This document shows, piece by piece, positions 10,759-36,521 of a DNA stretch of 64,000 nucleotides. Source of the DNA: a virus (lineage: Duplodnaviria; Caudoviricetes); IMG/VR virus record IMGVR_UViG_3300024999_001770, positions 1,730-65,729 of that record. One strand, given 5' to 3'. The notes under the pieces were generated by a model, which was not told where the DNA came from, made no database searches, and saw nothing but the letters and a program-made list of their open reading frames with translations. Both the position numbers and the translations under genes were made by a program. Position 1 is the first letter of the stretch, and the number at the start of each line of letters is the position of its first letter.

Positions 10759-12903
10759 ATGGCTGGCAGAGTGTACGAAACTATGTTTGAGTTAGGCGCC
10801 AGAATAAACAGCTCTTTCGGAAGTGCCTTTACGAACGCTCAAAATCAACTCGAAGCTACTAGTGGGCAGACTGAAAAAGCTAATACAATGTTTGGCAAGT
10901 TGGGCGCTGGGTTAGGCGTGGCGGCGGTAGGAATAGGCGCAGCGGCTTTAGCCGCCGGAGGATTAGCGGTTAGCGTCAGCGATGATTTGCAGAAGTCTCT
11001 CAACGGAGTGCAATCCGCAAGCGGTATAGCAGATGACGCCATGGCAGGCATGAAAGAAACCATGATTGCGATCTACAATGACAATTTTGGCGAGAACTTT
11101 GAAGAAATTGGCGCGGCCATGACTACAGTTAGCCAACAAACGGGATTAGCCGGAGACGCTTTAAAAGAAACTACTGAAAGTGCCTTACTACTAAAGGATA
11201 CTTTTGAATTAGAGGTTGCGGATAGCGTCAAAGGTGCCAATCAACTTATGAAGCAATTCGGGGATGATAGCACGGAAGCCTATAACCTCATAGCTCAAGG
11301 TGCTCAAAGTGGACTAAATGCTAATGGTGATTTGCTGGACACGTTGAATGAGTATGGCGGAACGTTTGCCGCACAAGGGTTTTCGAGTGTAGAAATGTTC
11401 AATATGCTTTCCAATGCCTCAAAGTCAGGTATCCGAGACGTAGATTTAGCCGCGGACGCAATAAAAGAATTCGGGATTAGGTCCAAGGATGGAAGTACGA
11501 CTTCAGCGGCAGGATTCGATGCATTAGGACTGAACGCCGCATCGATGACTAAGGCCTTTGCCACTGGCGGTGATACCGCAAAAGTAGCCTTTAGTAAGAC
11601 AACCGCAGCCCTACTCGCGATGAAAGACCCTGTAGCGCAAAATGCCGCAGGAGTAGCCTTGTTTGGTGCTCAATTTGAGGATATGGGGATTAAGGGAATT
11701 ACGGCCTTGGTCAATACACAGGGTAGTATTAGTAAGACAACGGATGCTTTGGGTAAAATTAACGCTGTAAAATACAATACTTTCGGCGAGGCAATGGAGG
11801 GCATAAAACGTAATTTACAGACAGGATTATTGCTTCCACTTGGCGAGAAGATACTACCAAAACTCAATGAATTTGCAGGATGGATTACTGCTAATATGCC
11901 AGCGATCCAGAATGAAATTGAGTACGCGTTTAATGAAGCTGGAAAAGCCGTTACTTTTCTATCTGACAACATGGATATTATCATCCCTGTACTTGCTGGA
12001 GTTGTAGGCGGCATAGTTGCCTTTGAAGTAATAACTACGGTAGTAGGTCTAATCAAATCCTTTCAACTCGCCACAGAGGGAGTGACTATCGCACAATGGT
12101 TATTTAACGCAGCTATGACTGCTAATCCTATTGGTATAGCTGTGGTAGCAATAGCGGCGTTAATAGCTGCAGGGGTCGCGCTGTGGATGAACTGGGACAC
12201 CGTAAAGGCAAAAGCATTAGAGCTATGGGAAGGAGTCAAGAGTACTTTTGTTGGCGTAGGAGAATGGTTCAGCAGTAATGTAGTAGAGCCTATAAAAAGC
12301 GTCTTCTCCGATATCGGCGACTGGTTTGACAATAATGTAATTCAACCGATCTTAGGGTTAGTCCCTAATTGGTTAAAGAAAATATTCTCAGGTGGTAGTG
12401 CATCCGCAAGCTTAACTGTAACATCAGATACAGGAGATATCCCCGGTAATGCAGAGGGAACAGATAACTGGCGTGGCGGCCTTACCTGGGTAGGGGAACA
12501 GGGTCCTGAGCTAGTGAATCTTCCGAGTGGCGCACAGGTTTTTTCAAACCCAAAATCATTAGCTATGGTTCGGAACGTAAACCAAAATGTTATACCGGCT
12601 AAAGCGAGCGCAATAGCCGGTATGGTTCAGGACGTAAACCAAAACGTTATACCTAACGCTAATAGTGAGGATAAGAATCAGGCTAGACTCACGCTATCTG
12701 ATTTGGAGGGCAAGCTCCAACGATCTAGTATAACAAACAATGATACTTCTTTCGCCCCAGTATTTTCCCCTCAAATAACTATTGAGGGCAATGCAGACGA
12801 AGCAACAGTAACAAAGGTTATAAAAATGTCCTTCGATGAATTCAAGAGGTTTATGAAGCAATATGAAAACGATAAACACAGACTCCAATTCTCCCCCAGT
12901 TAG
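10759..12903 (+). CDS. Tape measure protein
   Basis: 714 aa, Ala/Gly-rich, MTANPIG and W-repeats, C-terminal VGEQGPELV motif. Confidence 0.93.
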   Translation: MAGRVYETMFELGARINSSFGSAFTNAQNQLEATSGQTEKANTMFGKLGAGLGVAAVGIGAAALAAGGLAVSVSDDLQKSLNGVQSASGIADDAMAGMKETMIAIYNDNFGENFEEIGAAMTTVSQQTGLAGDALKETTESALLLKDTFELEVADSVKGANQLMKQFGDDSTEAYNLIAQGAQSGLNANGDLLDTLNEYGGTFAAQGFSSVEMFNMLSNASKSGIRDVDLAADAIKEFGIRSKDGSTTSAAGFDALGLNAASMTKAFATGGDTAKVAFSKTTAALLAMKDPVAQNAAGVALFGAQFEDMGIKGITALVNTQGSISKTTDALGKINAVKYNTFGEAMEGIKRNLQTGLLLPLGEKILPKLNEFAGWITANMPAIQNEIEYAFNEAGKAVTFLSDNMDIIIPVLAGVVGGIVAFEVITTVVGLIKSFQLATEGVTIAQWLFNAAMTANPIGIAVVAIAALIAAGVALWMNWDTVKAKALELWEGVKSTFVGVGEWFSSNVVEPIKSVFSDIGDWFDNNVIQPILGLVPNWLKKIFSGGSASASLTVTSDTGDIPGNAEGTDNWRGGLTWVGEQGPELVNLPSGAQVFSNPKSLAMVRNVNQNVIPAKASAIAGMVQDVNQNVIPNANSEDKNQARLTLSDLEGKLQRSSITNNDTSFAPVFSPQITIEGNADEATVTKVIKMSFDEFKRFMKQYENDKHRLQFSPS

Positions 12904-19149: not shown

Positions 19150-19245
19150 GAATTTAATATTTGTTTTTCGTGGTGATAACATATAAAATTATCATACGGG
19201 GTAAATCTTGAATTGCATTCCTGTAACCAGAGAGGAGTAAATAAA

Positions 19246-19473
19246 GTGGAGATAAAGCACGTAACGCCCCAAGAAGCCACTGATATTATTAATACAAAGC
19301 AACCGATTGGACTATTTCGCACGACCGGCGTTTTGAACACGGGATCAGCCGTAGATGGTATATATCTCGCTATTAATAATAGCGATGGCAATGCGCTGGT
19401 AAAGCAATTTATACACATAGGAGATTGTATGCAATGGCTTAGGTCAATACAAAAAAGACAATTACCAAATTGA
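19246..19473 (+). CDS. 75-aa hypothetical protein forming a one-gene cassette between sites 2 and 3
   Basis: RBS GAGGAG plus GTG 19246; its stop TGA overlaps site 3. Confidence 0.7.
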   Translation: MEIKHVTPQEATDIINTKQPIGLFRTTGVLNTGSAVDGIYLAINNSDGNALVKQFIHIGDCMQWLRSIQKRQLPN

Positions 19474-19551: not shown

Positions 19552-19821
19552 GTGAAAGAGCAACCAGAATTGACCATTAAACTTACCATAGACGCAAGCG
19601 AAGCACTGGAAACCTTAGCAAACGTGAAAGAAAATCTTGAACAAATCGTGGGACTGCAGGGAAAAATAGCCGAACAGAAAGTGCAAGTTTCCGTCCGGCA
19701 AGTGACAATAAATCCTATAAGAATTGAGTTACCTAAAGAATTTAGTGTGGATGAATTTATTGCGAAACTAGAGAAAAACCTATTATCTGGTCTACAAACA
19801 GGATCAATTCAGGGAAATTAA
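19552..19821 (+). CDS. Hypothetical protein
   Basis: RBS GAGGG plus GTG; 89 aa. Confidence 0.5.
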   Translation: MKEQPELTIKLTIDASEALETLANVKENLEQIVGLQGKIAEQKVQVSVRQVTINPIRIELPKEFSVDEFIAKLEKNLLSGLQTGSIQGN

Positions 19822-20197
19822 CATGGGTATTAGGATTGACCAGTGGAAGCAGTTCGGCGTCTATTAGTCTTATTACGGATCCATTATCAATAATATCTGG
19901 TTCACCATTTTCCTCAGCATACTTATCTACGATTTTCTTGCGCTGTTGAAAGACGATAGTTTGATCAATCCGGAAGACCTTTCCCTCAGGGGAAGTTCCT
20001 GCCTCTTTCACGAAACTTTCTTCTTCTTGTTCAAGATTGAATTCAACTAATTTACCCTTAAAAGTCCCAGCAGCTGTTAGAATAACAACGTTCATTGGGA
20101 AAGTATTTTTATCCAACGAATCTTGTAAGTTTCCAAGGATTGAAAGGGTTAATTTCTTTAGTGAAATACGATTGGGCGTTGATACTTTATCTTCCAT
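19757..20197 (-). CDS. Hypothetical moron protein with a sigmaH-type promoter
   Basis: RBS GGAGGTG; ACAGGGTTT-N11-GTCGAAT upstream (20249-20275). Confidence 0.7.
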   Translation of the reverse strand: MEDKVSTPNRISLKKLTLSILGNLQDSLDKNTFPMNVVILTAAGTFKGKLVEFNLEQEEESFVKEAGTSPEGKVFRIDQTIVFQQRKKIVDKYAEENGEPDIIDNGSVIRLIDAELLPLVNPNTHVNFPELILFVDQIIGFSLVSQ

Positions 20198-20303
20198 TTA
20201 TTTTCACCTCCTCCCTGAAACAGATTGGTTAGCCGTGATAACTACCAAATTCGACACAAAGGAGGAAAACCCTGTAAATAATAAAGAAACGCCCTGAAAG
20301 GCG

Positions 20304-20459
20304 CTATTGAACTAAGTATTGCTTATGTGACTGTTTTCTTTTTTCATCGGACAGGACAGAGTAAATCAAGGTTGTTGCAGGATCTACGTGCCCGAGAAGT
20401 CCCTGCACGGCTACCAGATCAGCACCGTTGTTTAACATTAATGTTGCGAAAGTGTGCCT
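20304..20459 (-). pseudogene. C-terminal 51 aa of the Xer-type tyrosine recombinase (separated by the RIT insertion)
   Basis: Translates [33 protein letters not shown]...YLVQ*, containing the catalytic R, H and Y. Confidence 0.95.
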
Positions 20460-20587
20460 GAGCAAATCCAAACTTTTGGATTTTCTCCGAAATCAAAACT
20501 ATAATAAAATCCAAACTTACCAACCAAAAGTAAGGGAAATCAATATCTTTAGTAGTAGAAAAGTTTGGATTTTATTTATAGACGGGA

Positions 20588-21628
20588 TCATTTCTTAAAG
20601 CCGCAGAAGTCTATCAATGATCCATTTGGGTTCTTCCATTTCTTAGTGATTTTTTTATCGTTCTCATTTTCAAGCGTTGCCAGTGCTTTCGCTTTATCCT
20701 CTGTCGTTATATCAAGGTAGATCATGGTGGTCTCCAAGTGCTTATGTCCAAGAAGGAAACTGACTTGCAAGACGTTAAGCCCATCTTCAATCCAGTGAGA
20801 GGCTTTTCCATGGCGAAATTGATGGGCATGTATGGTTAATGGCACATCCACGCATATTTCGTGTGCTTTCTTACCATACATCTTCAATCTTTTGTCTATT
20901 GCAGGTTCCGTCATCTTCACATATTTTCCACCCACTCTGGAATAAAAAAGGTAGGCATCCGGATCCGCCGGATTTCCATGGACTTCATACACATATTTTT
21001 TGATATGTGAGACTGCTCTTGGTAGAAGATAAAGCGTCCTTGTCTTCTGGCCCTTGCCGACAATGGTGACATACGGCTTCTTCTGATCCATGTGCAATTG
21101 TTTGATCCTTACTGACAGGATCTCGTCCAGTCTTGCTGCAGTCGCATACAAAAGGATCATGAAAACAAGATCCCTTTTCCCAATGCTTGTAGCCGGATCC
21201 GGTAATGACAGCATGGCGTTAACGGCATCCCGTGTCAGTCCACTGACTTTCTTAGGGACGCATTTCTGCCTTTTAATTGACCTTGCATCCTGATACAGGT
21301 ACATGAATCTGACATCCCGGCTGCCAACATACTCAAGAAAGACGCGGATAGAAGCAAGACGTACATTACATGTGTCCGGACAGCAGTTGCGGCTTTCTTT
21401 AAGCCATCGGATCCATTTCTCGATATACAGCTTTTCGAAGCATGCCTTTGTGAAATCAGAGGGCGTTATACCTTCGGATTCGAGGAACAGCACATAAAGA
21501 GTTAATGCATCCTTATAAGATTTCAGTGTACGTTCACTATTTGTCAGGCTACCTGGAGCATAATCATAAAGGAAAGTCGCTATGTATCGTGAGAATGTCA
21601 CAGCTTCATTATTATTCTTCATCATCAA
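20588..21628 (-). CDS. ritC: RIT tyrosine recombinase C
   Basis: ATAARLDE, GKGQKTR, HAHQFRH and LGHKHLETTMIY motifs. Confidence 0.9.
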   Translation of the reverse strand: MMMKNNNEAVTFSRYIATFLYDYAPGSLTNSERTLKSYKDALTLYVLFLESEGITPSDFTKACFEKLYIEKWIRWLKESRNCCPDTCNVRLASIRVFLEYVGSRDVRFMYLYQDARSIKRQKCVPKKVSGLTRDAVNAMLSLPDPATSIGKRDLVFMILLYATAARLDEILSVRIKQLHMDQKKPYVTIVGKGQKTRTLYLLPRAVSHIKKYVYEVHGNPADPDAYLFYSRVGGKYVKMTEPAIDKRLKMYGKKAHEICVDVPLTIHAHQFRHGKASHWIEDGLNVLQVSFLLGHKHLETTMIYLDITTEDKAKALATLENENDKKITKKWKNPNGSLIDFCGFKK

Positions 21629-22583
21629 CCACCTCTGGTACTATGGCATTGAAATCCAACTCCGTCTTGTCGATCAGAATATCAGCAAGACGGGGAACGA
21701 TTGAATAATAATAACGTGTCGCCTCTATAGAACGATGCCCCATGGATTTTGAAAGATAATGCAGCTTATCGCTGAATTCATAACCATCATCACTCCAACT
21801 ATTGATGTTTACGATTGCATAATGATGGCGGACATCATATGCGACAGGCGAAGCCACAGAACCATTCGCCTTGTTCCACAGCGCACGAAAGTTATCCTGT
21901 ACCCAATCCCTGGAATAGTGGGGGCCTTTGCTGGACTGGAAGAAATATGCCCTGGACGGCTGCAGTTCAGAAATCGCCTGATTGTATTTCGTCATAAGGT
22001 TGGTCATCGTATCATGCATCGCGATATAATGCTGGTCATATCCTTTCGATCTCTGGATATCAATGACACCACGTTCAAGGTCGACGTTCTCTGTCCTGAG
22101 CAGCCTCGCCTCAGTTGTACGCATACCAGTGCTGTATAATAAACGGAAAAAGACTGGAACCGTGAACTTCCTTATGACCGATGCCCGCCTTCCGAGATAT
22201 GGCTGAATACTATCACAGACATGGAAGAAACGTTTCAGTTCATCCTCCTCAAATGCATATGGAATGTATGTTTGGGGTTCTGGTCTGAGGACAGCAGGAG
22301 GAAGGACATCCGTAAGCTCCCTGCATCGTAGGTAATCAATGAACGTCCTTATGACCCTAGTCCTAGTTTCATATGAGCGGTTTGTTTCGGTATCCCTTTT
22401 GGCACACCAAACATCAACCATCTCCTGTGTTAGTACCGTACTCGACTGATAGTTGTCAGCACAGAAATGGTCGAAAAGCTTGATGTTCAGCCCATAACAC
22501 GGTTCGTTCCATGAACCGGATGCCTTACGGTATTCAATAAAGCGTTCTATTAGCTTTGAAAAACCAGATCTGAACTGGCTCAT
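21612..22583 (-). CDS. ritB: RIT tyrosine recombinase B
   Basis: STGMRTTE, YDVRHHYA and MGHRSIEATRYY motifs. Confidence 0.9.
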   Translation of the reverse strand: MSQFRSGFSKLIERFIEYRKASGSWNEPCYGLNIKLFDHFCADNYQSSTVLTQEMVDVWCAKRDTETNRSYETRTRVIRTFIDYLRCRELTDVLPPAVLRPEPQTYIPYAFEEDELKRFFHVCDSIQPYLGRRASVIRKFTVPVFFRLLYSTGMRTTEARLLRTENVDLERGVIDIQRSKGYDQHYIAMHDTMTNLMTKYNQAISELQPSRAYFFQSSKGPHYSRDWVQDNFRALWNKANGSVASPVAYDVRHHYAIVNINSWSDDGYEFSDKLHYLSKSMGHRSIEATRYYYSIVPRLADILIDKTELDFNAIVPEVVDDEE

Positions 22584-23839
22584 GGACAGAACACCCCCTC
22601 ACTTACCGGGAATGCCTCTATACTTAAAGTGCATTCTTTCAGGTGCACAAGGTCAGCATGGAGGTATGGATCCAATGAATGGGGGTTTGAATGCCCCAGC
22701 GTCTGACTGATAACCGGCCGAGGGATTCCGCTGCCCAGGAAAGATGTCGCGACATTGTGCCTGAAAAGATGCGTTCCACGACGGTCGCCTTTTTTCTGCC
22801 GCAAAGAAGCGGCTTTATAAATTTTGGCTGCCTGATGCCAGACAGCACTAGCTTTAAACGGATAATGAGGATAAACCTCGCTAAGAAACAAGTGAGTATC
22901 GTTGCTTTTGGGCCGTTCATTTACAAGATAATCATAAATGGAATTTCCAATAGTTGCTGTAAGAGGAAGAACTAGCGGTTGTCCAGTCTTCTGTTGCAGA
23001 AAATGTATTTCGTCAGCATCCCAGTCAATGGAACTGAGTTCCATCTCAGCGATATCGCACGCTCTTATCCCTGTAAAGAACAGTAGTTTACCAACCGCCC
23101 TGTCTCGTAATGATAAGCCAGAATTTCTGTCATCAAGCAAGGCATGGATGGATTCAACTTCTTCAGATGTGAGAAACTGGATATTTTTTCTTTTGGGGCG
23201 TATCGGAGGAAGGTATGCAAGGAGAATCTGACATTCTTTTTCTTTCCAGCCAATCCCAGCTTTAAAAACAGCCGCTAGCTGTTTTTTGTAGCTACTACAC
23301 TTAGAAACCTTGCCCTCGCTGTCAAGAAAAAAGGAGAGCACATCTTCTTCATTGATACAGTCAAGACTTTGTAAGCCTTTCTTTTGCATGGCACAGAGGA
23401 AAGTTGATGCGGCAGACGCATTCCCATAAATTGTCCGTTCTTTCAGACCGCGGAGTTTATCTGATGCCATGTAAAAATCTATAAATTCCTTGAATTCTGG
23501 GATAAGTTGATAATAAGTGCCTCGTTTTATGAAACAGTTTTTGATTCTTCTGTTCGGATATTCTCCATAAAGATCGAATTGCTGTATGGCTCCAAATGCT
23601 ATCCTTTGGTTCTTCTTATACAGTTTCGATTCTGATTTATGTACCCGGTCATTGTAGACATCAATATAAGATTGCCATGATCTATACTTTTCATTTTTCA
23701 GTATCCATTTGATATCCTCATGAACAAGCCGGATATAGCTTTCTGTGTATTCCTCCTTTTCAATGTAATCCAATAGTTCACGATAATGCTGTTGCAAATG
23801 TGTAAAATCCATATATGAACACCTCCTTGGTTTTATCAT
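22580..23839 (-). CDS. ritA: RIT tyrosine recombinase A
   Basis: TGIRACD, HLFRHNVA and LGHSNPHSLDPY motifs. Confidence 0.9.
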   Translation of the reverse strand: MIKPRRCSYMDFTHLQQHYRELLDYIEKEEYTESYIRLVHEDIKWILKNEKYRSWQSYIDVYNDRVHKSESKLYKKNQRIAFGAIQQFDLYGEYPNRRIKNCFIKRGTYYQLIPEFKEFIDFYMASDKLRGLKERTIYGNASAASTFLCAMQKKGLQSLDCINEEDVLSFFLDSEGKVSKCSSYKKQLAAVFKAGIGWKEKECQILLAYLPPIRPKRKNIQFLTSEEVESIHALLDDRNSGLSLRDRAVGKLLFFTGIRACDIAEMELSSIDWDADEIHFLQQKTGQPLVLPLTATIGNSIYDYLVNERPKSNDTHLFLSEVYPHYPFKASAVWHQAAKIYKAASLRQKKGDRRGTHLFRHNVATSFLGSGIPRPVISQTLGHSNPHSLDPYLHADLVHLKECTLSIEAFPVSEGVFCP

Positions 23840-23946
23840 ATATGAGTCTTACCTTCAAAATAAAATCCAAACTTTATAGAAGCCAAAGCCTATGGTTTAT
23901 TTGATTTTTGGCAGATAGTTTGGATTTTATTATAGTTTTGATTTCT

Positions 23947-24792
23947 GAAAATATGAGGATGCACGTTTTTGGTGACCTCTGATCGACCGGCTATGACCTT
24001 AACCTCTCGCTGGATGCCCTTTGCCGAAAGCCTTCGGTAAGGCCGGCGCTCCGTTACAAACAGTGCGTCCACGGTGTCGGAACGCTTCTTTAGGTATTTT
24101 TGCAAGTGATACATGGCTTTAAAGCTAAAATAAACGGGACGCTGTTTATTTCCTTTTCCAACAACAACCACTGACATTGCTTGATAGTCGATATCTCCCC
24201 GGTTCAATTGTTGTACTTCGGTGAGACGCGCCCCAGTGGCATAGTATACCTCAATGAGTGCTCGTTCTCGGGGTGTGACACAGGCCTCGCGGATCATCTC
24301 AAGTTCTTCTATCGTGAGTGCCTTTGGTGCTCTTTGTTCTTTCTTTGGTGGCTTGATTTGCTTAGTTGCGTCGTTGGGAATTATTTTCTCTGCCGTCAGC
24401 CAGCCGAACATAGATTTTAGAACAGACAATTTCTTGGATATTGAAGAAGTTTTGAGGTGATCGAATTCGCTAAGGAAGATCCTGATGTCTGCAGTGGTGA
24501 TCTCATCAGTAGCTTTGTGGATGTGTTCAGAAAAGATCCGAAGTTCAAGAGTGTAACTTTCTAGCGTTGAAATAGCGAGGCCCTCGAGCTTTTTACCGGC
24601 CAAGAACAGTTTGATTTTGGCTGCTAGATCGGGATGGCCGTTGGGTACCAGCGCTGGCTTGATGTCGTATTGGGAAAGGATGACGGAAAGTGTTTTCTGT
24701 AATTCAAGCTTGTCCAGATTTGGGCAAAAAATGGCGCCCACCACCTGCTCGAGCAGAATTTCAGCGGTTGAGCTAAGTATTTGTTGAGACAT
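23947..24792 (-). pseudogene. N-terminal 282 aa of the Xer-type tyrosine recombinase, interrupted at the HxxR motif
   Basis: ATGARLTE, GKGNKQR and VHPHIF, then reads into the RIT inverted repeat; joining to 20304-20459 gives 333 aa. Confidence 0.95.
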
Positions 24793-24809
24793 ATCTCTTT
24801 TCGCTCCTC

Positions 24810-24912
24810 TTGTTTAACCCGGAGCGATCACCTACAATATAAATGTAAGGCGCTCCGGTGTCTTCTATAAGCACTCGTCTAGGCCGGCAAGCTAGGGACG
24901 GGTGCTTTCTTG
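24810..24912 (+). ncRNA. Candidate antisense RNA to the recombinase leader
   Basis: TTGTTT-N17-TACAAT (24810-24838), no ORF, terminal hairpin AAGCACTCGTC...GACGGGTGCTTT. Confidence 0.55.
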
Positions 24913-28033: not shown

Positions 28034-29092
28034 ATGCGTACAGTTAAAGAGGTAACTATCAAAAATGCCATAGCCCACTCTTTGGACAATAGCATTGATT
28101 CATCGAGATTAAGTGATTACGAATTAGATCTAGACGAAAAAGTAGTTAGCTTCATTAGAACCCATGTTCTAAAATCCCTGGAGGATGAAAAAATAAGGGC
28201 TGCAAAGTATGAAGCTGGTCGAAACATTGTGAAAGAAAGTGCAGATAGTATATTTGATTTCCCAGAGAAATTTTTAGAGGAATCTAAAGAAATTGCGAGG
28301 CAGCTATTTCTGGCAATGCAATCTAACAAAAACATAACTTCTGCAGATTTGATTGTTTCCCTTTATGAAGGAAACGGTCAGAACTATCTTGCAGTTCTAA
28401 AAATGGATTATCAGAGTACATACATTACTGAAAGTAAAGTCATTAGCGGAAAAACTAAAATAGTATTAACTGATAAGGGAATCAGCTTGCCGAATATCCG
28501 TCAGAAATTACAAAAATGCGTTTTTTTTAAAAGAAGTATCACAGAAGATGCGGATGTAGAAACTGCAAATAACACTTACGATATGCTTTTAATAGATAGG
28601 CAGGCAAGGCAAGAGTCAGAAAGAGATATCGCTCAGTATTTTGCAACAACATTTTTAAAGTGTAAGTTAGTGTTGAACGATAAGGATAGAACCAAGAAAT
28701 TCCACTTGAAAGTCAAAAAATATGTAAATGAATTTTTGGCCGATCAACCAGAAGAACAAAAAAGGGTTTTGGATAGTTTGGAAGTTACTTTGAGAAACCA
28801 ACAACATGTTAGTGCTGTTGAATTTTCAAATAACCATTTCTCAGAAGAGCAAAGGCAATTATTCTTGGATTTCTTAGTTAATGAAGGCCTTTCTGATTTT
28901 GAATTTGTGCCGGACAAAGAGTATGTGCAGGCAAAGTATAAAATCAGGAAGATAAGAACTAACGAAAAAATTGAAGTTTCTTTACTAGATGATGATTACA
29001 AGAATCCAGAAAAATTTAGTTACGAGCCCGTTGAGGGCGGCAGGTATAATCTTACTATAAAGAGTGTAAAAGTAACTGACTGGGGCGGATGA
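28034..29092 (+). CDS. Nucleoid-associated protein (NA37/YejK-like family)
   Basis: IAHSLD, SKEIARQLF..M, SADLIV, LAVLKMDY and QKLQKC motifs. Confidence 0.8.
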   Translation: MRTVKEVTIKNAIAHSLDNSIDSSRLSDYELDLDEKVVSFIRTHVLKSLEDEKIRAAKYEAGRNIVKESADSIFDFPEKFLEESKEIARQLFLAMQSNKNITSADLIVSLYEGNGQNYLAVLKMDYQSTYITESKVISGKTKIVLTDKGISLPNIRQKLQKCVFFKRSITEDADVETANNTYDMLLIDRQARQESERDIAQYFATTFLKCKLVLNDKDRTKKFHLKVKKYVNEFLADQPEEQKRVLDSLEVTLRNQQHVSAVEFSNNHFSEEQRQLFLDFLVNEGLSDFEFVPDKEYVQAKYKIRKIRTNEKIEVSLLDDDYKNPEKFSYEPVEGGRYNLTIKSVKVTDWGG

Positions 29093-29096
29093 TTTT

Positions 29097-30617
29097 ATGA
29101 ATGCCTTATTTAGTAAAATTGATAACTTAGTGGCTAAAATACATACCGAACATATAAAAGATGAACCGGGGATATTTGAGGCGCACGGCACCATAGATAT
29201 CGGCGGATTAAATATCGAGGAATTGATCGCCTTGGTTGAAGCATTCGGTATCGCTTTGTACATAAAACTTATTCAGAAATCAGGTAGCGACATGGTGATC
29301 AGCCTGAATACTACGGAATCTCAAATTGTTGAGTATATTGATGAATCTAAGGATTGTGGTGAAAGTTCCTTCAACGTAGTTATATCGCTTGCTAAAGTAA
29401 ATTTACTTGATCATATTCTAGAGGAAAAACCAAATAGTATTCAACCGATTGTTTTTATATATTACGATAAGTTTTTTGATTGGGTCACGAAAGTAAGTTT
29501 CGAAGAACTAGAAAAAACGTTTTCGCCGGATTGTTTAAATGTAATCTTTATAATGGAAAAGGAAATAATGCTTTCCAATGACCATTTGTTGGTAATTGGT
29601 GGGAATTTAGATGGGGCTATTAACTCTATTAACAATTGCGTTAACCCTGATAGTACGTACCAGTTAGGCAAAGAAACAATTGTATTGCGAAATAACAACT
29701 GTAGTTGGTTGCATGGTACTAATTATTTAACTCCACAGTATTTTTACTTTAAGCCAGATCAATTGGCCACTTTCGAAGGACTTGGTAAAGCCTTTTCATT
29801 AAAAATCCTTAATTTAGTCGTACCATTTTTAGCTTCTTCAACAACGACCGAAGAGTCAGGGTACTGCATAGCAACGATTCTCGGTTATAAAGCTGTTAAA
29901 TTAAACTTAGGTACATGCTGTAATGTTGACCAAGAACAAGTACTTAAGGCGTATGAGTTATTTAACTGGATATATAGAGAGTCAAATACAACAGACAAAT
30001 TGGGGATATTTAGAAATATAGTTAGTCTATATTTAACGAAAGATACTGACTTAAATATAGACTCGTTTTTAGAACATATAAACGATATTTCATATTCAAC
30101 TAGGTCAAGTTTTGATGTTTATTTAAAGGAGAATGTGAAACTATATTTTGAGCAAAGGAAAAAGATTGAGGACTTTATTCAAGGAAAAATCAAGGAGATA
30201 ACTGACCAAATTTCGGCAGTTGTTGGACTAATGAGCAAGAATTTAATAACTACAATTGGCGCAATTCTTGCGGCAATCTTGACCCAAGTCAATAAACCTA
30301 GTAGTAATCTGGCTAATATAGCAATCCTATCGTACATGGTATTTGTAGCTTTGAGCACGGCCTATTATTCTTCATTTACGATGATTAGTGTTTGTCAATC
30401 CATAGCTTCATATGACCATAACATTAAATACGCCAGGAAAACCCTAAATGATGATGATGTTACGGACTTAGCTGGAAACTTTGTTCGGAATAAGAAAATT
30501 GTGTTTTATTGTTTTTGGGGGGTTACATTGTTCATAAGCCTTGCGTTGATAGGTATTGGAGTATTTCTTTTGGCATATCCAGGAGTTTTACTTCAGTTAC
30601 AGACACCGATAAAATAA
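29097..30617 (+). CDS. 506-aa protein with coiled coil and about three C-terminal TM helices; partner of the NA37 gene
   Basis: 4-bp gap to upstream gene; hydrophobic C-terminal segments; AT-rich. Confidence 0.75.
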   Translation: MNALFSKIDNLVAKIHTEHIKDEPGIFEAHGTIDIGGLNIEELIALVEAFGIALYIKLIQKSGSDMVISLNTTESQIVEYIDESKDCGESSFNVVISLAKVNLLDHILEEKPNSIQPIVFIYYDKFFDWVTKVSFEELEKTFSPDCLNVIFIMEKEIMLSNDHLLVIGGNLDGAINSINNCVNPDSTYQLGKETIVLRNNNCSWLHGTNYLTPQYFYFKPDQLATFEGLGKAFSLKILNLVVPFLASSTTTEESGYCIATILGYKAVKLNLGTCCNVDQEQVLKAYELFNWIYRESNTTDKLGIFRNIVSLYLTKDTDLNIDSFLEHINDISYSTRSSFDVYLKENVKLYFEQRKKIEDFIQGKIKEITDQISAVVGLMSKNLITTIGAILAAILTQVNKPSSNLANIAILSYMVFVALSTAYYSSFTMISVCQSIASYDHNIKYARKTLNDDDVTDLAGNFVRNKKIVFYCFWGVTLFISLALIGIGVFLLAYPGVLLQLQTPIK

Positions 30618-30676
30618 TTAAAGATGATCTCTAGTGGATTGGGGGTGCTGATCGAGGAGTTGTGTGGAGAGCGTTA

Positions 30677-30706
30677 AAGTCCTTACTATTGTGGTAGGGG
30701 CTTTTT
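30677..30706 (+). terminator. Terminator
   Basis: AAGTCCTTACTA...TGGTAGGGGCTTTTT. Confidence 0.6.
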
Positions 30707-30895
30707 ATATTTTTGTGAGACAGGTTTCTCGTAATTTCGCGAGGAAGTTGTGAGATGATTATATCGTCTCGAGTTAATCGGGTATTTCAATAAGTATATT
30801 ATACGGGCGCGTGATTGTTTGGTTGTAAGTAATCTGGATTTTGGAATAAACCGAGGCTTGATGTAACTAAAATTATAATACTGAGGAGCATTTAT

Positions 30896-31720
30896 ATGGA
30901 TATTTCGAGAGAGAAAATAGAAGAATCAGGCAATAATATTACATATGCATATTTTCGTTTTTCAAGTACAAGAAGTAGGGTTAATCTTCTGCTTGATGCA
31001 AGCAGGCACGGATTAGATGATAAATTAAGCAAAATAAATAGCATTTTAGATAAACTCAACGATCCAGAGGGGACCATCGGTATATGTGAAAAGGCTGAAA
31101 AATTTCAAATACTTAAAAGAGAAGACGGAATGTTCGAATTCAACTTAGGCGAAAGTGAATTGGAGATAATGAAATGCGCAATGGAACATTCCCGCAAAGA
31201 ACATTCCGAAGTAGATACATACCTATACTCTGTACTTCTGGTTTTTATTTGGGGAGCTTTTGAAGCGTACTGTACTATGCTTTTTGGTGAATTATTTATA
31301 AAGCAACCCTTAATGTTAAAAACTAATGATAAAATTTCCTATTGTGAAATTATTGAAAATATAAGCAATCCACTAGAATTACTGATTGAGAAGGAGTTGA
31401 ATAAAATAGGCCATTTTAAAATTAAAGAAATGGTTCTATATTTTAAAGAAAAGGTTAAATTTTCCTTTACTCCTGACGAAGAGAGTAAAATGAAAGAGAT
31501 ATATAACATAAGAAATATTATTGCTCATGCTACTGGGATTGTGCGTTCCGATGCTGCCAATGAGTTACCAAAAAGTATATCTATCAAAGAAAATGAGATT
31601 TTACTGTCTAAGGAATACCTAGATGAAGCGGTTGAAGCTATATTTGGTGTTGTAGAACGAATACAAAAACATATCGAATTAAAATTTTCAAAAAACAAAG
31701 TGGAATTTGATACTTTATGA
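30896..31720 (+). CDS. HEPN-domain protein (putative RNase)
   Basis: Upstream AFEAY glutamate and RNIIAH (Rx4H) motif; helical; AT-rich. Confidence 0.7.
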   Translation: MDISREKIEESGNNITYAYFRFSSTRSRVNLLLDASRHGLDDKLSKINSILDKLNDPEGTIGICEKAEKFQILKREDGMFEFNLGESELEIMKCAMEHSRKEHSEVDTYLYSVLLVFIWGAFEAYCTMLFGELFIKQPLMLKTNDKISYCEIIENISNPLELLIEKELNKIGHFKIKEMVLYFKEKVKFSFTPDEESKMKEIYNIRNIIAHATGIVRSDAANELPKSISIKENEILLSKEYLDEAVEAIFGVVERIQKHIELKFSKNKVEFDTL

Positions 31721-31820
31721 ATATTTATTCATAGCTTTCTCTAGCCAAGCAGGGCCATCACTTCATAATAACAGAATGCTTGAACGTTAGTAACGTTCAG
31801 AATGCAAGAGGAGAACCCTT

Positions 31821-32069
31821 ATGAAAATCCTCTCAACCCCCATCGAAGTCCTAGCCCACTTCGAAGAAAACGGCACACCCCACCCACTCCGCCTCAAGCT
31901 TAACGGCGAAACAATCAAGATAGAACAGGTAGTATCAGTAACCGAAGAGAAGCTGGCCGGCAATCGAATACTCATTTTTAGGTGCCAGAGTGAGATTAAG
32001 GGGGAGCTAAAGCCATTCGAGATTAAGTATGAGTTGGGTACCTGTAAGTGGTTTTTGTGGAAGATGTAG
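31821..32069 (+). CDS. Conserved small Firmicute hypothetical protein
   Basis: RBS GAGGAG; PIEVLAHF..GTPHP...FRCQS...KWFL. Confidence 0.75.
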   Translation: MKILSTPIEVLAHFEENGTPHPLRLKLNGETIKIEQVVSVTEEKLAGNRILIFRCQSEIKGELKPFEIKYELGTCKWFLWKM

Positions 32070-32155
32070 CATAATAACAGTGGTCCACAGGCATACTAAC
32101 CCTCGTATTGTCACACGTCCTACTTGCCCTCATCGGAAACGGTGGGGGCTTTTTT
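32069..32155 (+). ncRNA. Candidate sigmaG-driven ~50-nt small RNA
   Basis: GCATA-N18-CATACTA (32069-32098), then an ORF-less stretch ending in a hairpin and T-run. Confidence 0.5.
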
Positions 32156-32291
32156 ATTTGTAGAGACTTTAGTCATGGCGTAGTAGGGCTTTAGCATCAT
32201 TTTATATCTACTTCGACTATATCCGGCAGGGAAATGAAAATACGAGGAGGAATATACTGTAAAACATGCATGGCGGGAGGCGATAATTAAA

Positions 32292-32501
32292 TTGATCATA
32301 ATTGACAAAACCGTCTGCAAACAAATCGCCTACTACAGACAAAAACGTAATTTAACCAGGGAAGAGTTAGCTTCTAATGTCGGTATCCGCCTTAATCACC
32401 TTATTAAGATTGAAGCCGGATTAAGAATTCCCCGTATTAACGAGCTCGTACAATTAGCGGCGGGGCTAAGTATCTCGATCGATGAATTGGTTAATAGTTA
32501 A
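32292..32501 (+). CDS. XRE-family HTH regulator
   Basis: LTREELA...KIEAG.R.P pattern; RBS GGGAGG. Confidence 0.85.
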   Translation: MIIIDKTVCKQIAYYRQKRNLTREELASNVGIRLNHLIKIEAGLRIPRINELVQLAAGLSISIDELVNS

Positions 32502-32597
32502 GTAAGGCTCTTGCTAAACGGTGGGGGCTTCTTCATTTTTCAGGAACGGGTAAAAATAATAAAAACAGCCCCCGGCTTTCGCCAGGGACCAATAATC

Positions 32598-33461
32598 TCA
32601 CACCTTCGTTCGTGTTTGACCGAGTTCGAACTCGTGAACCTGTGCGATCAAGGTCTGAATCTTATCTTGGAAGGCGTCAACCTTGATCGCATATTCATCC
32701 TTGAGTTTAGTGGTCGCCTCCAGAACCCGGTTACTTGCCTCAACTCCGGCCGCATGAATCTGCAGGTCAGCCATTTTTTGTGCGGCGGCAATGGCTTTTT
32801 CATGTTCCTTTTCAGCATTAGCCAAGCGCTCTTTTGTGAGTTCGAGGATTTGGCCGTTTTGAACAGCTTCGGACCGCAGTCTTTCGATTAGACGCTGGCT
32901 ATCGTCATGCTGTGCCCGCAGCTGCTGAACTTCGGCTTCCATCTCGGCCACGGTCCCGATCTGGGCCTCCATAGTTTCGTTTTTCCCGGTTAGCAGATCA
33001 ATGGTAATTCGATTCGATTTGTTAACGGCTTCAAGTTCGCCGTTTCGCTCAGAAAGCTCCTTGAGTTGATCTTGGATTTCGGACAGATCCAGCCGGGCCT
33101 TGTCGCGTTCGGCTTCAGCCTGTAGTCTACTCTTATCCACCTGGTCAACAATGCCTTGATGCACTCGTTTTTCTTGATCGATACTTTCTGCGAAATTTTC
33201 CTTAAGATCGTGCAGCTTTTGAACCATGTTGGTAAAGATTGATTCGGCATGAGAGAGATGATAGCGGAGTTGTTGCATATCTTCGGTTTGCTCGGTGTCG
33301 CTGCTGGCTAATAAATTAGTTTTGAATTGTGCCACCATGGCCGAGAAAAGATCCTTTTGGCTAAGTCCTGTGCGCTCGACCAATACTGATACGTCAGACA
33401 TGACCTCATCGTTGGTGCGGACAGAGTAAAGTGGTGGCTTGTTTTTTGCTTCATCGGACAA
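32598..33461 (-). CDS. N-terminal RHH-like DNA-binding domain plus long coiled coil
   Basis: YSVRT strand then two helices; heptad-rich remainder; RBS AAGGAGG. Confidence 0.7.
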   Translation of the reverse strand: MSDEAKNKPPLYSVRTNDEVMSDVSVLVERTGLSQKDLFSAMVAQFKTNLLASSDTEQTEDMQQLRYHLSHAESIFTNMVQKLHDLKENFAESIDQEKRVHQGIVDQVDKSRLQAEAERDKARLDLSEIQDQLKELSERNGELEAVNKSNRITIDLLTGKNETMEAQIGTVAEMEAEVQQLRAQHDDSQRLIERLRSEAVQNGQILELTKERLANAEKEHEKAIAAAQKMADLQIHAAGVEASNRVLEATTKLKDEYAIKVDAFQDKIQTLIAQVHEFELGQTRTKV

Positions 33462-33484
33462 ATCAATGACCTCCTTAAATAATA

Positions 33485-33540
33485 TGTAAACATTTAACCC
33501 CCTATATAAGCCGTGTTTACCTATGTAAACATGTTTACAT
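33485..33540. promoter_or_regulatory. TGTAAACA operator array including the 18-bp palindrome ATGTAAACATGTTTACAT
   Basis: Half-sites at 33485 and 33513, palindrome at 33523-33540, upstream of the coiled-coil gene. Confidence 0.6.
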
Positions 33541-33933
33541 TATGTATACTATTATTATAGCACCAATATTTGTTAGTTGCAAGAATTTAGAAAGTTACTG
33601 AAGCATAAAAGATAGCCCTTCGGTTGTTGTACCGGAGGGCTATCTTTGTTATTCCTTTGACTTTTTTAGTTCGTAAACATGTTTCTCGATCTCCCTCATC
33701 GACTCGACCAGCCTCGAATTCGCTGCTCTATACCATTCCGGACAGCTACTTTGATTATGTAGTAGAGGAGAACGAGAGATAGGAACCAGAGGCAGAGGAA
33801 GAGAATCGTGTTGGGGGGGAGGAATGAGTTAGGGATCATCCTTTCATAAGAGTATGCCCGCGGCTGGAGTGCCGCGGGCATACATAATCTTTAGTTACTC
33901 TTTACCCTAAAACTGCCTTAATTAAACAGTCAC

Positions 33934-34746
33934 CTATTTGCCATCGTTTACATCACTCGCTCCAAACCAAATACCAAGGGTCTTTGAACTCTGTAAGTGG
34001 TACTTAACGTTACCCCTTACAGTAGATTTGTCAGCTTCTGCAAGATTCGCGTTGTCCCCCATGGCTCCCACATCCCTGAGGATGTTGCCACGTTCAGAAG
34101 CCGAAAGGTCTTGGTTGGTTGTATGGATAAGCAATCCCCAAGAAAGGATTACATTCGATGCGGTCTTAGGATTAGACAACCCTTGCCCGGCCGCTATTAT
34201 CATAACATCTCGAATTGATCCATCTGCTTTATTAACAGTCCCCAGTAAGCCGTGGCTATCGTTAAATTGGTATCGAAACGTATCCTGCGCTGGCCCGTTC
34301 TCGACATTGATTTTCGATATTTTGAAATCAGACATATTTAGCGACGTGGCGCTTGAATTCCATTTGTCTTTAAACTCATTAGGCTTCAATCCAATCGTTC
34401 CGGGTATTTTTTTGGCATTAGCTTCAGCCGCAGCTTTTTCCGCAGCCGCCTTAGCTTCAGCCTCCTGTTTGGTTTTCAGTTCAGCATCAGTCTTTTCTTT
34501 AGCTAACTGCTCAGGAGTCTTTGCAACGGTTGCCACAGTTGGGACGGAGGTTGGTGGGGTCGGAGTGGTAGTGGTATTGGGTGAATTGATTGCAAAAACA
34601 CAGAATAACACAAACATAACCAAGGCAGCCAATAAAGTTTGTTTTCGCGTATACTTCTTTTCGCCTTTTGAAATCCATTTGGGATTGATAGTAACTACCA
34701 GCATTAATAGAAAAAGTAGAAAACTCACGATACCGAGAAACTTCAT
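33934..34746 (-). CDS. Membrane-anchored extracellular protein
   Basis: Two N-terminal TM helices, Thr/Pro linker, Ala/Glu/Lys stalk, globular C-terminus; sigmaH-like promoter at 34793-34819. Confidence 0.75.
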   Translation of the reverse strand: MKFLGIVSFLLFLLMLVVTINPKWISKGEKKYTRKQTLLAALVMFVLFCVFAINSPNTTTTPTPPTSVPTVATVAKTPEQLAKEKTDAELKTKQEAEAKAAAEKAAAEANAKKIPGTIGLKPNEFKDKWNSSATSLNMSDFKISKINVENGPAQDTFRYQFNDSHGLLGTVNKADGSIRDVMIIAAGQGLSNPKTASNVILSWGLLIHTTNQDLSASERGNILRDVGAMGDNANLAEADKSTVRGNVKYHLQSSKTLGIWFGASDVNDGK

Positions 34747-34857
34747 TCGAGATCAGCTCCTTTTAATTTGATTCAATGAAAACCTTTAAAACCTTCTGCG
34801 TGGTATAGTCTTTTCCTGCAACTCGACAGGATTAATGGTTTTGCGCTAAAATTTGCA

Positions 34858-34905
34858 ATGGTCGTTACCTTAGTCGCTTACTTGATCGTTAACTTAGTCG
34901 CTAAT
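34858..34905 (+). repeat. Four degenerate 12-bp tandem repeats
   Basis: ATGGTCGTTACC TTAGTCGCTTAC TTGATCGTTAAC TTAGTCGCTAAT. Confidence 0.6.
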
Positions 34906-35055
34906 ACGACCAATGTACAAGCTAAAACCCGCATAAATCAAGCAAATATTTTCTGAAAAAGAGGGTTAAAGGGAGGAAGATAGGGGTCCAGGGGGAAGCG
35001 GAGGGAACAGGGAAAAGAAATTTTAGCTTTCGCGGAATCAGAGTGGGGGAGGGGC

Positions 35056-35637
35056 CTACCTAAGATACCCCATCGGATCGACTGTCTTCCCATTCCTCCG
35101 TATCTCAAAATGTAAGTGTGGTCCGGTTGAATTGCCTGTATTTCCGCATGTCCCTATTTTCGCCTTTGCAATGATAGACCATCCCGCCTTAACACTTATC
35201 CCATTTAGATGAGCATATAGAGATTCTACGCCACGGCCATGGTCCAATACGACGAAGTTGCCATATACCTGATTATACTCTACGCGCGTCACAGTGCCTC
35301 CTTTGGATGCCCATACGGTTGTTCCAGCTTGACCAGCTATGTCAATTCCGTGGTTGGTGGGGTTATAACCTTGAGTAATATTCCCAGCCATGGGCATTTC
35401 CCAATCTCCCTTTCCTATCCCGCTTAATTTATCGGCTGTATCTTGGAGGTCTTCAGCTCGGGCAGACCATTTTTCGATTACTGGGGTTAGATCCTGCATG
35501 GTGCTTAGTAAGCCGATCATAATCGCAACCATAAATACTAGGTTGGCGAGTTGTTTTCTATTAACCCCAATAAGGATTGTATAAGCAATGAATGATCCTA
35601 TCGAAACGAGAAGTAAATGAAAAATCCATATAGACAC
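35056..35637 (-). CDS. M23 (LytM) peptidase with two N-terminal TM helices
   Basis: HGIDI (HxxxD variant), YAHL and STGPHLHFE motifs. Confidence 0.9.
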   Translation of the reverse strand: MSIWIFHLLLVSIGSFIAYTILIGVNRKQLANLVFMVAIMIGLLSTMQDLTPVIEKWSARAEDLQDTADKLSGIGKGDWEMPMAGNITQGYNPTNHGIDIAGQAGTTVWASKGGTVTRVEYNQVYGNFVVLDHGRGVESLYAHLNGISVKAGWSIIAKAKIGTCGNTGNSTGPHLHFEIRRNGKTVDPMGYLR

Positions 35638-35638
35638 T

Positions 35639-35875
35639 TCACATCACACCTGTTGTAAATTCAAAAAACTTCTTGAGTAGCTGCCATGCGACAGTTACGA
35701 CCGAAAGGATAGCGACAATCGTTGTTGCCGTTCTGAGCATGTTTGCGACCTGACCCTTATTAACTGCTCCTAAAATCAATTCGCCCAACCAAGATCCTAC
35801 GCCAAGCATAACTAAAACAATGATCACGAAGCCAGGTCTACCGAATCCGAACACTTGAACTGCTGCTTCTGCCAT
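35639..35875 (-). CDS. Small two-TM protein, reminiscent of SpoIIIAC/AD
   Basis: TM-short polar linker-TM, 78 aa. Confidence 0.6.
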   Translation of the reverse strand: MAEAAVQVFGFGRPGFVIIVLVMLGVGSWLGELILGAVNKGQVANMLRTATTIVAILSVVTVAWQLLKKFFEFTTGVM

Positions 35876-36521
35876 TTAAGCATTCCTCCTTCACGTAATC
35901 TAGTGAATAAACCTTGAATTCCAAGTTGTGAACGTTTTCCTTTTGGATCTTCTCATTAAGCTTCTTTACCCGGCCGGTAGTCACGACGATGATGGGCGGG
36001 AAACGTTTAGAGAGAGGAACCCACCACATTTTAATATAAGATTCTGAGGCATAAAGATCATTGTAGCGTCTAACCTTAACCCCGAAATCGTTCCCACTTT
36101 CATCAATGTCTAATTCAACAAATAGGAAGGTAAGTGAATCTTTCCATAAGTTTTTAATTCCAACAAATGCATCTGGCCGAACTAGTTTATAATCCTTAAC
36201 CTCACGATTGAAAGAGTGTAAGCGTTCCATGGAATTGAGCGTTGATGTGATCCATACGTAAATCCAAGATACTCCTAGAACGTGCTCCAATTGGCCTGGC
36301 TTACTGTCCGTGTAATAATAATTTGGTTCATCCAAAGATATTCTTGCTCGCTTGATTGCCTTGCGATCAGTAAGCTTCTTAAGTCTGCGCTGAACGATTC
36401 GGAGGACATTATCCGGGAAAAGTAGAAGCTTTATTTGATCCGTATTTAGGGCACCGTGAGTTTCCAAGAGTCGGAATAACTCCTTATCGCGGTGGGAGCA
36501 TTTTGCGTGGTTGCTCAACAA
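35838..36521 (-). CDS. Replication-relaxation family protein
   Basis: N-terminal wHTH, LEHVL, RPDAF, FVELD and KVRRY motifs; overlaps the FtsK gene. Confidence 0.85.
   Translation of the reverse strand: MLSNHAKCSHRDKELFRLLETHGALNTDQIKLLLFPDNVLRIVQRRLKKLTDRKAIKRARISLDEPNYYYTDSKPGQLEHVLGVSWIYVWITSTLNSMERLHSFNREVKDYKLVRPDAFVGIKNLWKDSLTFLFVELDIDESGNDFGVKVRRYNDLYASESYIKMWWVPLSKRFPPIIVVTTGRVKKLNEKIQKENVHNLEFKVYSLDYVKEECLNGRSSSSSVRIR

Follow-up and report, generated by a model that had tools for sequence, protein, structure and literature searches.

A recombinase-in-trio element within the catalytic HxxR codons of a phage tyrosine-recombinase gene, and the junctions of its relatives

Why should a recombinase gene of a phage be split within the codons of its catalytic HxxR box, by an element that itself carries three recombinase genes? 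This question is raised by a locus in a 64,000-nucleotide stretch of DNA (hereafter the window), which comprises positions 1730-65729 of the 65,729-bp IMG/VR virus record IMGVR_UViG_3300024999_001770 (Duplodnaviria; Caudoviricetes), rated 100% complete by CheckV. Here, two pieces of a XerC/D-like tyrosine-recombinase gene flank an element of the recombinase-in-trio (RIT) type. The original prediction, made from the letters of the window, was that a RIT element had inserted into the HxxR motif of a "cassette recombinase" that serves tail-fiber switching, that clean excision would restore the gene, and that the element could act as a reversible OFF switch.

The element interrupts a phage recombinase gene within its HxxR codons

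The interrupted gene is contained in two minus-strand open reading frames (ORFs). The ORF at 23890-24792 encodes a XerC/D-like recombinase as far as ..NVHPHIF and then reads into element DNA, and the ORF at 20304-20471 resumes the recombinase (RHTFAT..LLGH..LIY..LVQ, then stop). Of the 172 positions of the Pfam profile PF00589, the 5' piece matched 3-134 and the 3' piece 132-170. These are therefore the halves of one catalytic domain, divided near position 133, where the H-x-x of the HxxR box is parted from its R-H. The two parts are as follows:

23951..24792, minus strand: 5' part of the XerC/D-like phage recombinase that the element splits, M1 to ..V-H-P-H-I (ORF; PF00589 3-134; PF02899 and PF13495 SAM-like N-domains; phrog_1 integrase, 4.3e-33)
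20304..20457, minus strand: 3' part of the same recombinase, beginning at the third base of the R codon and continuing with HTFAT..LLGH..LIY..LVQ and stop (ORF; PF00589 132-170)

Relatives of the interrupted gene were present on 49 viral contigs, with identities of 46-86%. The two halves were contiguous in 48 of these 49 loci, the 49th being a partial match. A motif search found 21 relatives with an unbroken ..HPHxFRHTFATL.., and in the closest of this set the last 50 residues were those of the 3' piece in the window. The 3' part was 96% identical to the C-termini of 10 relatives, the closest ones included. Neither half has decayed, and both are free of stops. Scripted joining of the halves across either of the 6-bp spacers described below gave 1,002 nt, or 333 codons, with 0 internal stops, and the motif after joining was HIFR or HMLR depending on the spacer. 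The joined product shared 264-292 of its 333 residues with intact homologs of 333-342 aa. The split of the phage recombinase by the element is thus confirmed by one precisely cut domain and by intact relatives, and so is the expectation that removal of the element leaves an open 333-codon frame that keeps HxxR.

Both junctions were also present in Logan contigs (not raw reads) from the sequencing runs X1, X3 and X4 of one groundwater study, X1 and X3 possibly representing the source and X4 another sample; a further run, X5, belongs to a different study. Contigs of X1, X3 and X4 crossed both junctions with 0 differences, and one X1 contig of 4,641 nt spanned 20252-24892, again with 0 differences. 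Since independent contigs cross both junctions, the split cannot be ascribed to an error in a single assembly. The depth of the element contig matched that of its flanks (207.6 against 178-231 in X1; 785 against 645-878 in X3). The element contig was about 10% less deep than the left flank, but right-flank contigs varied as much among themselves, and this difference was given no weight. The original prediction had called for a search for the empty junction. No empty-site joint was listed among the contigs of X1, X3, X4 or X5, and a probe for the empty junction that covered both spacer variants gave 0 matches in IMG/VR. The insertion in this phage population appears fixed.

The element has the genes and ends of a RIT

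The element measures 3,481 bp between the spacers (window 20464-23944), with one 6-bp spacer beyond that. It carries three co-oriented minus-strand tyrosine-recombinase genes, encoding 419, 323 and 346 aa, which also share the orientation of the interrupted host gene:

22580..23839, minus strand: ritA-like gene, 419 aa, two helical bundles and then the catalytic domain (PF00589 1e-24, residues 222-396)
21612..22583, minus strand: ritB-like gene, 323 aa (PF00589 3.8e-19)
20588..21628, minus strand: ritC-like gene, 346 aa, with about 38 residues beyond the catalytic domain (PF00589 9.7e-26, residues 131-308)

The ritA and ritB genes overlap by 4 nt, ATGA on the coding strand (22580-22583), and ritB and ritC overlap by 17 nt counted from the first TTG, or by fewer from the next ATG. 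Published descriptions of RIT genes give overlaps of 4-8 bp, with ATGA (PMC3414803, PMC2864759). The RitA residues R259, H357, R360 and Y392 were invariant across 39 homologs, and an AlphaFold model of RitA (predicted local distance difference test score 82.5) placed helices at 13-91 and 114-209 ahead of the catalytic domain. The RIT proteins have been described as a RitA of about 410 aa with two sequential core-binding domains and a RitC with an extra C-terminal helix (PMC8138268).

The two ends of the element are imperfect inverted repeats of 97-98 nt with 77% identity (92% over a 38-nt core). Each contains three copies of a 9-nt box, AAATCCAAA and variants: an outer box b1, a box b2 17 nt inward, and an inverted box b3 about 43 nt further inward. 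Next to the ritC-end repeat there is in addition a 20-bp palindrome, here called P. From the ritA end inward to the target 3' part, the end features are:

23945..23950, minus strand: 6-bp spacer of the 5' junction, with the coding-strand sequence TTTCAG, and the proposed crossover region; encodes the end of I, then F and the first two bases of the catalytic Arg codon
23858..23944, no strand assigned: inverted repeat at the ritA end, with b1 at 23935-23944, b2 at 23917-23928 and b3 at 23862-23874 (boxes of 9-12 nt; AAATCCAAA and variants)
20490..20577, no strand assigned: inverted repeat at the ritC end, with b1' at 20490-20499, b2' at 20506-20517 and b3' at 20562-20573
20484..20489, no strand assigned: inner 6-bp spacer between the ritC-end repeat and P, read from the sequence
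20464..20483, no strand assigned: 20-bp palindrome P, two inverted 9-nt boxes around 2 nt, found by repeat search; part of the element, adjoining the target 3' part
20458..20463, minus strand: outer 6-bp spacer of the 3' junction, with the coding-strand sequence GCTCAG; the Arg codon of the 3' part takes its first two bases from the end of this spacer

At the ritA end the order is thus b1, 6 nt and target 5' part, and at the ritC end it is b1', 6 nt, P, 6 nt and target 3' part. The spacers TTTCAG and GCTCAG have TCAG in common, 4 of 6 bases. The CTGA that had been noticed at both junctions does lie at 20458-20461 and 23945-23948, but it represents these four shared bases of two 6-bp spacers and not a target duplication. 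By the number, order, sizes and overlaps of its genes, by its length and by its ends, the element is a RIT.

There is a single copy of the element in the virus record. Database searches with RitA returned 442 homologs at E<=1e-10, many of them on stand-alone contigs of about 3.3-3.8 kb, because repeats break assemblies. A tblastn search of plasmids with RitA matched 358 records below 60% identity, mostly at 24-33%, from rhizobia, Cupriavidus and others; the one proteobacterial match that was inspected, on an Agrobacterium vitis pTi, was the first gene of a trio. NCBIfam offered no RIT model and no family-specific name, with only sub-threshold Xer matches. No match to the element was obtained by megablast against 50,697 phage records, and no close relative by a scan of IMG/VR with exact RitA peptide patterns. 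A RitA profile scan of IMG/VR found only relatives of 40-43% identity, none of them inside recombinase genes.

Junctions of related elements define a target rule

We scored the junctions of 84 loci, comprising the window, three loci from GTDB (RitA identity 93, 93 and 75%) and 80 metagenome loci (48-95%); the count did not extend to four further GTDB loci (22-42%) or to six viral ones (30-43%). Recognizable boxes were present at 110 of the 168 ends, of which 53 were without P, 47 had P and 10 lay too near a contig end. The box architecture was uniform across the collected loci. The end that bears P varies (the ritC end in the window, the ritA end in loci L053 and L055), and P is always beside the target 3' part.

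After deduplication, scripted scoring found that 40 of 48 b1-side flanks end exactly in CAY-NNN-NNN-(C/A)G. This pattern encodes H-x-x-R, with the first A of b1 completing the Arg codon, and its background in the scored loci was 0.31% (2,536 of 814,962 positions). On the P side, 41 of 43 distinct flanks start with R-[H/R/K..]-x-x-[A..] or carry an LGH..Y box. When the translation of each flank alone was compared with Pfam, PF00589 was matched by 30 of 37 on the P side and by 21 of 38 on the b1 side, many of the latter being shorter than 50 aa. Other copies therefore hit the same codon in other integrases, a point that the original prediction had proposed to check. The two junctions of a copy differ in form. 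Form A runs [target ..CCN CAY NN][6 nt ending CG or AG][outer box of inverted repeat]; form B, at the opposite end, runs [outer box][6 nt][P][6 nt ending CG or AG][target N-CAY.. = (R)H..]. Both fit the general scheme [left arm: P arm or ..CCNCAYNN][NNNN(C/A)G][right arm: b1 or N-CAY..].

Among loci with both ends, 11 have P at the ritA end and HxxR at the ritC end, and nine have the reverse. The spacers at the two junctions of a copy are identical at 6/6 bases in L106, L110 and L117, at 4/6 in the window and at 1/6 in the miniature copy L151. At about nine loci the spacer on one side of P is the reverse complement of that on the other. Mobility of the element as a unit is indicated by the 48 and 43 distinct flanks among the 84 loci, and also by the miniature copy and the circle- or tandem-like joint described below. 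Taken together, the junctions suggest that this RIT lineage homes, with a very strong preference, to the HxxR codons of tyrosine-recombinase genes, in both orientations.

A copy devoid of recombinase genes was found in a viral contig of 5,458 nt that also carries other large ORFs (L151:497-820). This 325-bp copy consists of P, the ritA-end repeat, stubs of ritA and ritC, and the ritC-end repeat, and interrupts a recombinase gene at its ..Y-P-H-I-L-R codons; the encoded protein and the target in the window share 42% identity (E 5e-60). From its structure we regard it as a non-autonomous derivative resembling miniature inverted-repeat transposable elements. Its location in HxxR codons suggests that the ends of the element suffice for mobility in trans.

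A palindrome-motif scan returned 20 viral stretches, 18 of which were unrelated coding palindromes. The other two are L151 and a site in a viral contig of 74.6 kb (L162:7097-7116), where two different tyrosine-recombinase genes meet head to head at their 3' ends with a lone 20-bp P between them. The lone P is probably a remnant left after the RIT body was lost between two P-bearing junctions.

Proposed mechanism and the observations that weigh against it

It is very probable that the RIT integrated site-specifically into the DNA that encodes the H-x-x-R-H motif of the phage XerC/D-like recombinase, and inactivated it. In the mechanism we propose, the boxes would bind the Rit recombinases and the donor would be circular, its two repeat ends separated by P. 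Such a circle would hold two equivalent core sites, each composed of a P arm, a 6-bp spacer and an outer box, which share P. Integration via one core or the other would give the two orientations, and inversion between the cores after integration would give the same result. Strand exchange would take place inside the 6-bp spacer, with heterology tolerated as in coupling sequences. This tolerance would explain why the junction spacers share 6/6 bases in some copies and one to four in others. Since one 6-bp segment is exchanged for another that likewise supplies bases one and two of the Arg codon, the frame would stay open after excision and would still encode HxxR. Either spacer restores this frame, which makes a clean reversal mechanistically plausible. 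The loss of the recombinase is evidently tolerated, and the phage would serve as a vehicle for the element.

One contig bears on the predicted circle. In X5, which contains an element 95-99% alike, position 23946 is joined back to 20461 with one letter between. The order at this joint is repeat end, 6 nt, P, 6 nt and the other repeat end, as predicted for the junction of a circle or of tandem copies. Loose ends of the element in X5 run into other recombinase genes (..PHILR up to the element, RHSKSVHLL beyond it). The search for RIT circles set out in the original prediction was thus partly rewarded, by a circle- or tandem-like joint in X5.

We also propose, more tentatively and as something we regard as possible but somewhat short of probable, that the lineage is a "recombinase hunter". 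Its attachment site would be the H-x-x-R-H DNA of tyrosine recombinases, which would act as a beacon for phages, integrative and conjugative elements and other mobile DNA. The element would disable the recombinase of its carrier with the frame restorable, and would spread horizontally within that carrier, in this case a phage of very high abundance in its sample. Two cores around one P would permit either orientation.

Several observations weigh against these proposals. Eight of the 48 b1-side flanks and two of the 43 P-side flanks do not fit the rule, some of them having no clear reading. Locus L098 occupies a non-recombinase site, with TGTGCC at both junctions; L087 has Lys in place of Arg (HxxK); one end of L127 lies a few codons downstream, in the recombinase 3' part; and the distant loci L099-L101 are off the rule. 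Both ends carry recombinase 5' parts in five "zero-P" loci, and P with 3' parts in four or five "double-P" loci. These could have arisen by reciprocal recombination between oppositely configured copies or by chimeric assembly through the 3.4-kb repeat. On the Priestia megaterium plasmid NZ_CP069608.1, a copy with the same end structure (L146, 4900-8450; RitA identity 44.5%) interrupts an unrelated gene at its H-E-L-T-H (zincin-like) codons, and GTTGAC is read at each of its junctions. The two His codons of this target are spaced as in HxxRH, at 12 nt, so that recognition may be of a DNA pattern such as CAY-N9-CAY rather than of recombinase genes as such. The circle-like joint of X5 is a single contig of depth 4.68 from a different sample, and could be a tandem copy. 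Excision is neither shown nor excluded by the contigs searched, because contigs drop rare variants.

The two fragments of the gene split by the Priestia copy are absent from the PLSDB gene table, in which their locus tags are skipped. Two further distant trios, in four viral contigs, lie outside recombinase genes.

Alternative explanations

The OFF switch of the original prediction corresponds to a regulated gene-intervening element, whose precise and conditional excision would turn the recombinase, and with it tail-fiber or other switching, back on. The undecayed state of both gene halves, the 96% identity of the 3' part to 10 relatives and the restoration of an HxxR frame by either spacer are all compatible with such a switch, and read-through could express the trio, which faces the same way as its host gene. 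There is also a precedent in gin, which lies in gerE and rebuilds the gene on excision, though via serine recombinases (PMC5595907). However, no empty site was found in the contigs of the four runs or in IMG/VR, and the depth of the element equals that of its flanks. No invertible tail-fiber cassettes were found in the window, and relatives showed few inverted repeats, those inspected (in L047) being terminator hairpins. In addition, the trio faces either way relative to its target in relatives (11 against nine loci), so that expression coupled to the host gene is not a family trait. The restorable frame thus stands, whereas a working switch is unlikely.

Homology-driven recombination between the HxxR region of the target and the look-alike HxxR region of ritA would also bring the two together, as 21 nt at 20441-20461 are 86% identical to the HxxR-coding stretch 22744-22764 of ritA. 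This is very unlikely, as the junctions lie at the outer boxes of the terminal repeats and not within ritA, and as the geometry is identical with dozens of unrelated target sequences and with the gene-less mini element. Still less credible is a chimera in which a bacterial repeat was threaded into a phage contig during assembly. RIT copies are indeed multi-copy and often found on stand-alone contigs of about 3.4-3.8 kb, and the zero-P and double-P forms of metagenomes may be chimeras. Against this, the 4,641-nt X1 contig spans the whole insertion, contigs of X3 and X4 cross both junctions, and depth matches the flanks. The flanks are moreover exact halves of one gene, which is not expected of a chimera. 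Site-specific integration into the HxxR codons is therefore the explanation that we prefer.

Role of the interrupted gene and phage context

The interrupted gene has baseplate and tail-fiber genes on one side and a helix-turn-helix gene, a holin gene and an amidase gene on the other. An inverted-repeat search of the window with a seed of 11 found none near tail-fiber DNA. At a second stringency the best near the fiber genes was one of 26 nt at 81%, and none above chance flanked tail-fiber DNA. Blastn self-comparison of the 49 related loci yielded few inverted repeats, of which only those of L047 were inspected. The part of a "cassette recombinase" for tail-fiber switching, assigned to the gene in the original prediction, is not borne out: neither inverted sites nor alternative fiber segments were found in the window, and the L047 repeats are terminator hairpins.

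The 26-nt repeat (19232-19257 / 20185-20210) covers the ribosome sites and opening codons of two small ORFs that converge, 19213-19473 (plus strand) and 19757-20197 (minus strand), and probably just reflects similar translation starts. Another inverted repeat, of 24-40 nt at 14051/25402 (E 0.042), was missing from the closest syntenic relative and is regarded as a chance match.

We also considered whether the target could be the lysogeny integrase, and rejected this because the gene sits between tail-fiber and lysis genes and not beside a repressor. A 534-aa serine recombinase with Resolvase, Recombinase and Zn-ribbon domains does lie beside an HTH_3 repressor (40919-42888), and is likely the integrase of the phage. 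Five related phage records each have a second tyrosine recombinase besides the target homolog, and one of the five has a serine recombinase. From this gene content we take the target to be a conserved accessory (second) recombinase of this phage group, and not its lysogeny integrase. The lysogeny integrase module itself seems to have been swapped in this phage.

A candidate site for the interrupted recombinase lies upstream of its gene:

24819..24858, no strand assigned: conserved imperfect palindrome immediately ahead of the interrupted gene, with a DNA fold of -11.2 kcal/mol (z -2.8); candidate cognate site

The inner arms of this palindrome co-vary in all 15 aligned loci, which were chosen because they show it. 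Contigs of X1, X3 and X4 contain a joint, 24838->25709, that begins at the center of the palindrome and indicates a related phage that differs over the intervening 870 bp. In X4 this variant had a depth of 40, compared with 5-7 for the window type. The palindrome may be the cognate site of the interrupted recombinase, as well as a mosaic boundary.

The region 28034-38677, which separates the lysis genes from the serine-recombinase/repressor module, encodes nucleoid-associated NA37, a FtsK/SpoIIIE ATPase, Replic_Relax and an M23 peptidase. This content is typical of small integrative/conjugative elements and not of phages, and the region could represent another passenger element, or else a moron region. 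At 12564-12653, two direct repeats of 33 nt (91% identity), 57 nt apart, lie in a 714-aa ORF (10759-12903) that is likely the tape-measure gene, and represent an ordinary internal repeat.

Significance

RIT elements are widespread, and a junction rule together with a natural 325-bp mini element makes their mechanism directly testable. The rule comprises an outer box, a 6-bp spacer ending in CG or AG, the palindrome as a second arm and HxxR codons as the target, and it gives a poorly understood class of transposons a defined target. If it is true, homing to the active-site codons of their own superfamily would lead these elements to land preferentially in other mobile elements, which they would freeze and ride. 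The phage case indicates that such carriage occurs in nature and is tolerated. There is also a warning for annotation, in that split "integrase" pseudogenes around three integrase genes represent a single insertion event.

Comparison with known systems

The RIT elements of Cupriavidus metallidurans CH34, C. necator pHG1 and others have likewise been described with three adjacent, co-oriented and overlapping genes, a long A followed by a short B and C (PMC3414803, PMC2864759, PMC8138268). They also resemble the present element in a length of about 3.5 kb, in terminal inverted repeats with a palindrome beside ritC, in being multi-copy, and in insertion into the genes of other mobile elements (PMC3414803). 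The targets given for them are radC, IS66 tnpA, the transposase gene of Tn6049 and IS3-type sequences (PMC3414803, PMC2864759, PMC2430713), and Table 1 of a 2023 article lists target specificity, empty-site formation and mode of movement of RIT elements as "not tested", their mobility never having been reproduced (PMC10214605). In contrast to the published elements, the one described here belongs to a Bacillota lineage, its target is the HxxR(H) codons of tyrosine-recombinase genes and its carrier is a phage; its RitA is 24-33% identical to those of proteobacterial plasmid copies. A preference of RIT elements for integrase genes, which the original prediction had presented as established, is real for this lineage (40/48 and 41/43 flanks), but we could not trace its established status in the literature. 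The literature searched in full text contained no statement that RIT elements home to HxxR codons, although earlier print cannot be excluded, and the junction-level HxxR rule, as read from these sequences, appears new in that literature.

Coupling-sequence recombination in Tn916 and CTnDOT tolerates non-identical overlaps of 6-7 bp, with junction overlaps that differ. These are large conjugative elements with a single integrase plus Xis, and with AT-rich or loosely defined targets.

The mobile integrase cassettes of Bifidobacterium longum are alike in having three xerC-like genes in a row, an inverted repeat of 96 bp and a conserved palindrome of 20 bp; they differ in that their description has them sandwiched by IS3-type sequences, without a junction-level target rule or mechanism (PMC2430713). 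Tn554 and SE/GInt elements share with the present element several tyrosine recombinases, site-specificity, the lack of a target duplication and a six-bp donor carry-over, whereas, as described, they have other gene sets (TnpC/Srap, Tfp), no terminal palindrome with duplicated cores, and non-recombinase targets (PMC10214605). The skin, SPbeta and gin elements likewise lie within a coding region whose frame is restored by precise excision, but they are described as using serine recombinases with a directionality factor under host developmental regulation, and nothing comparable was seen here (PMC5595907). As possible RIT elements we rejected gin, since it uses serine recombinases, and the "three recombinases" of Tyrovirus, since their genes are dispersed. 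To the known systems the present case adds a phage carrier with an apparently fixed insertion, two orientation classes, the behavior of the spacers and a circle-like junction.

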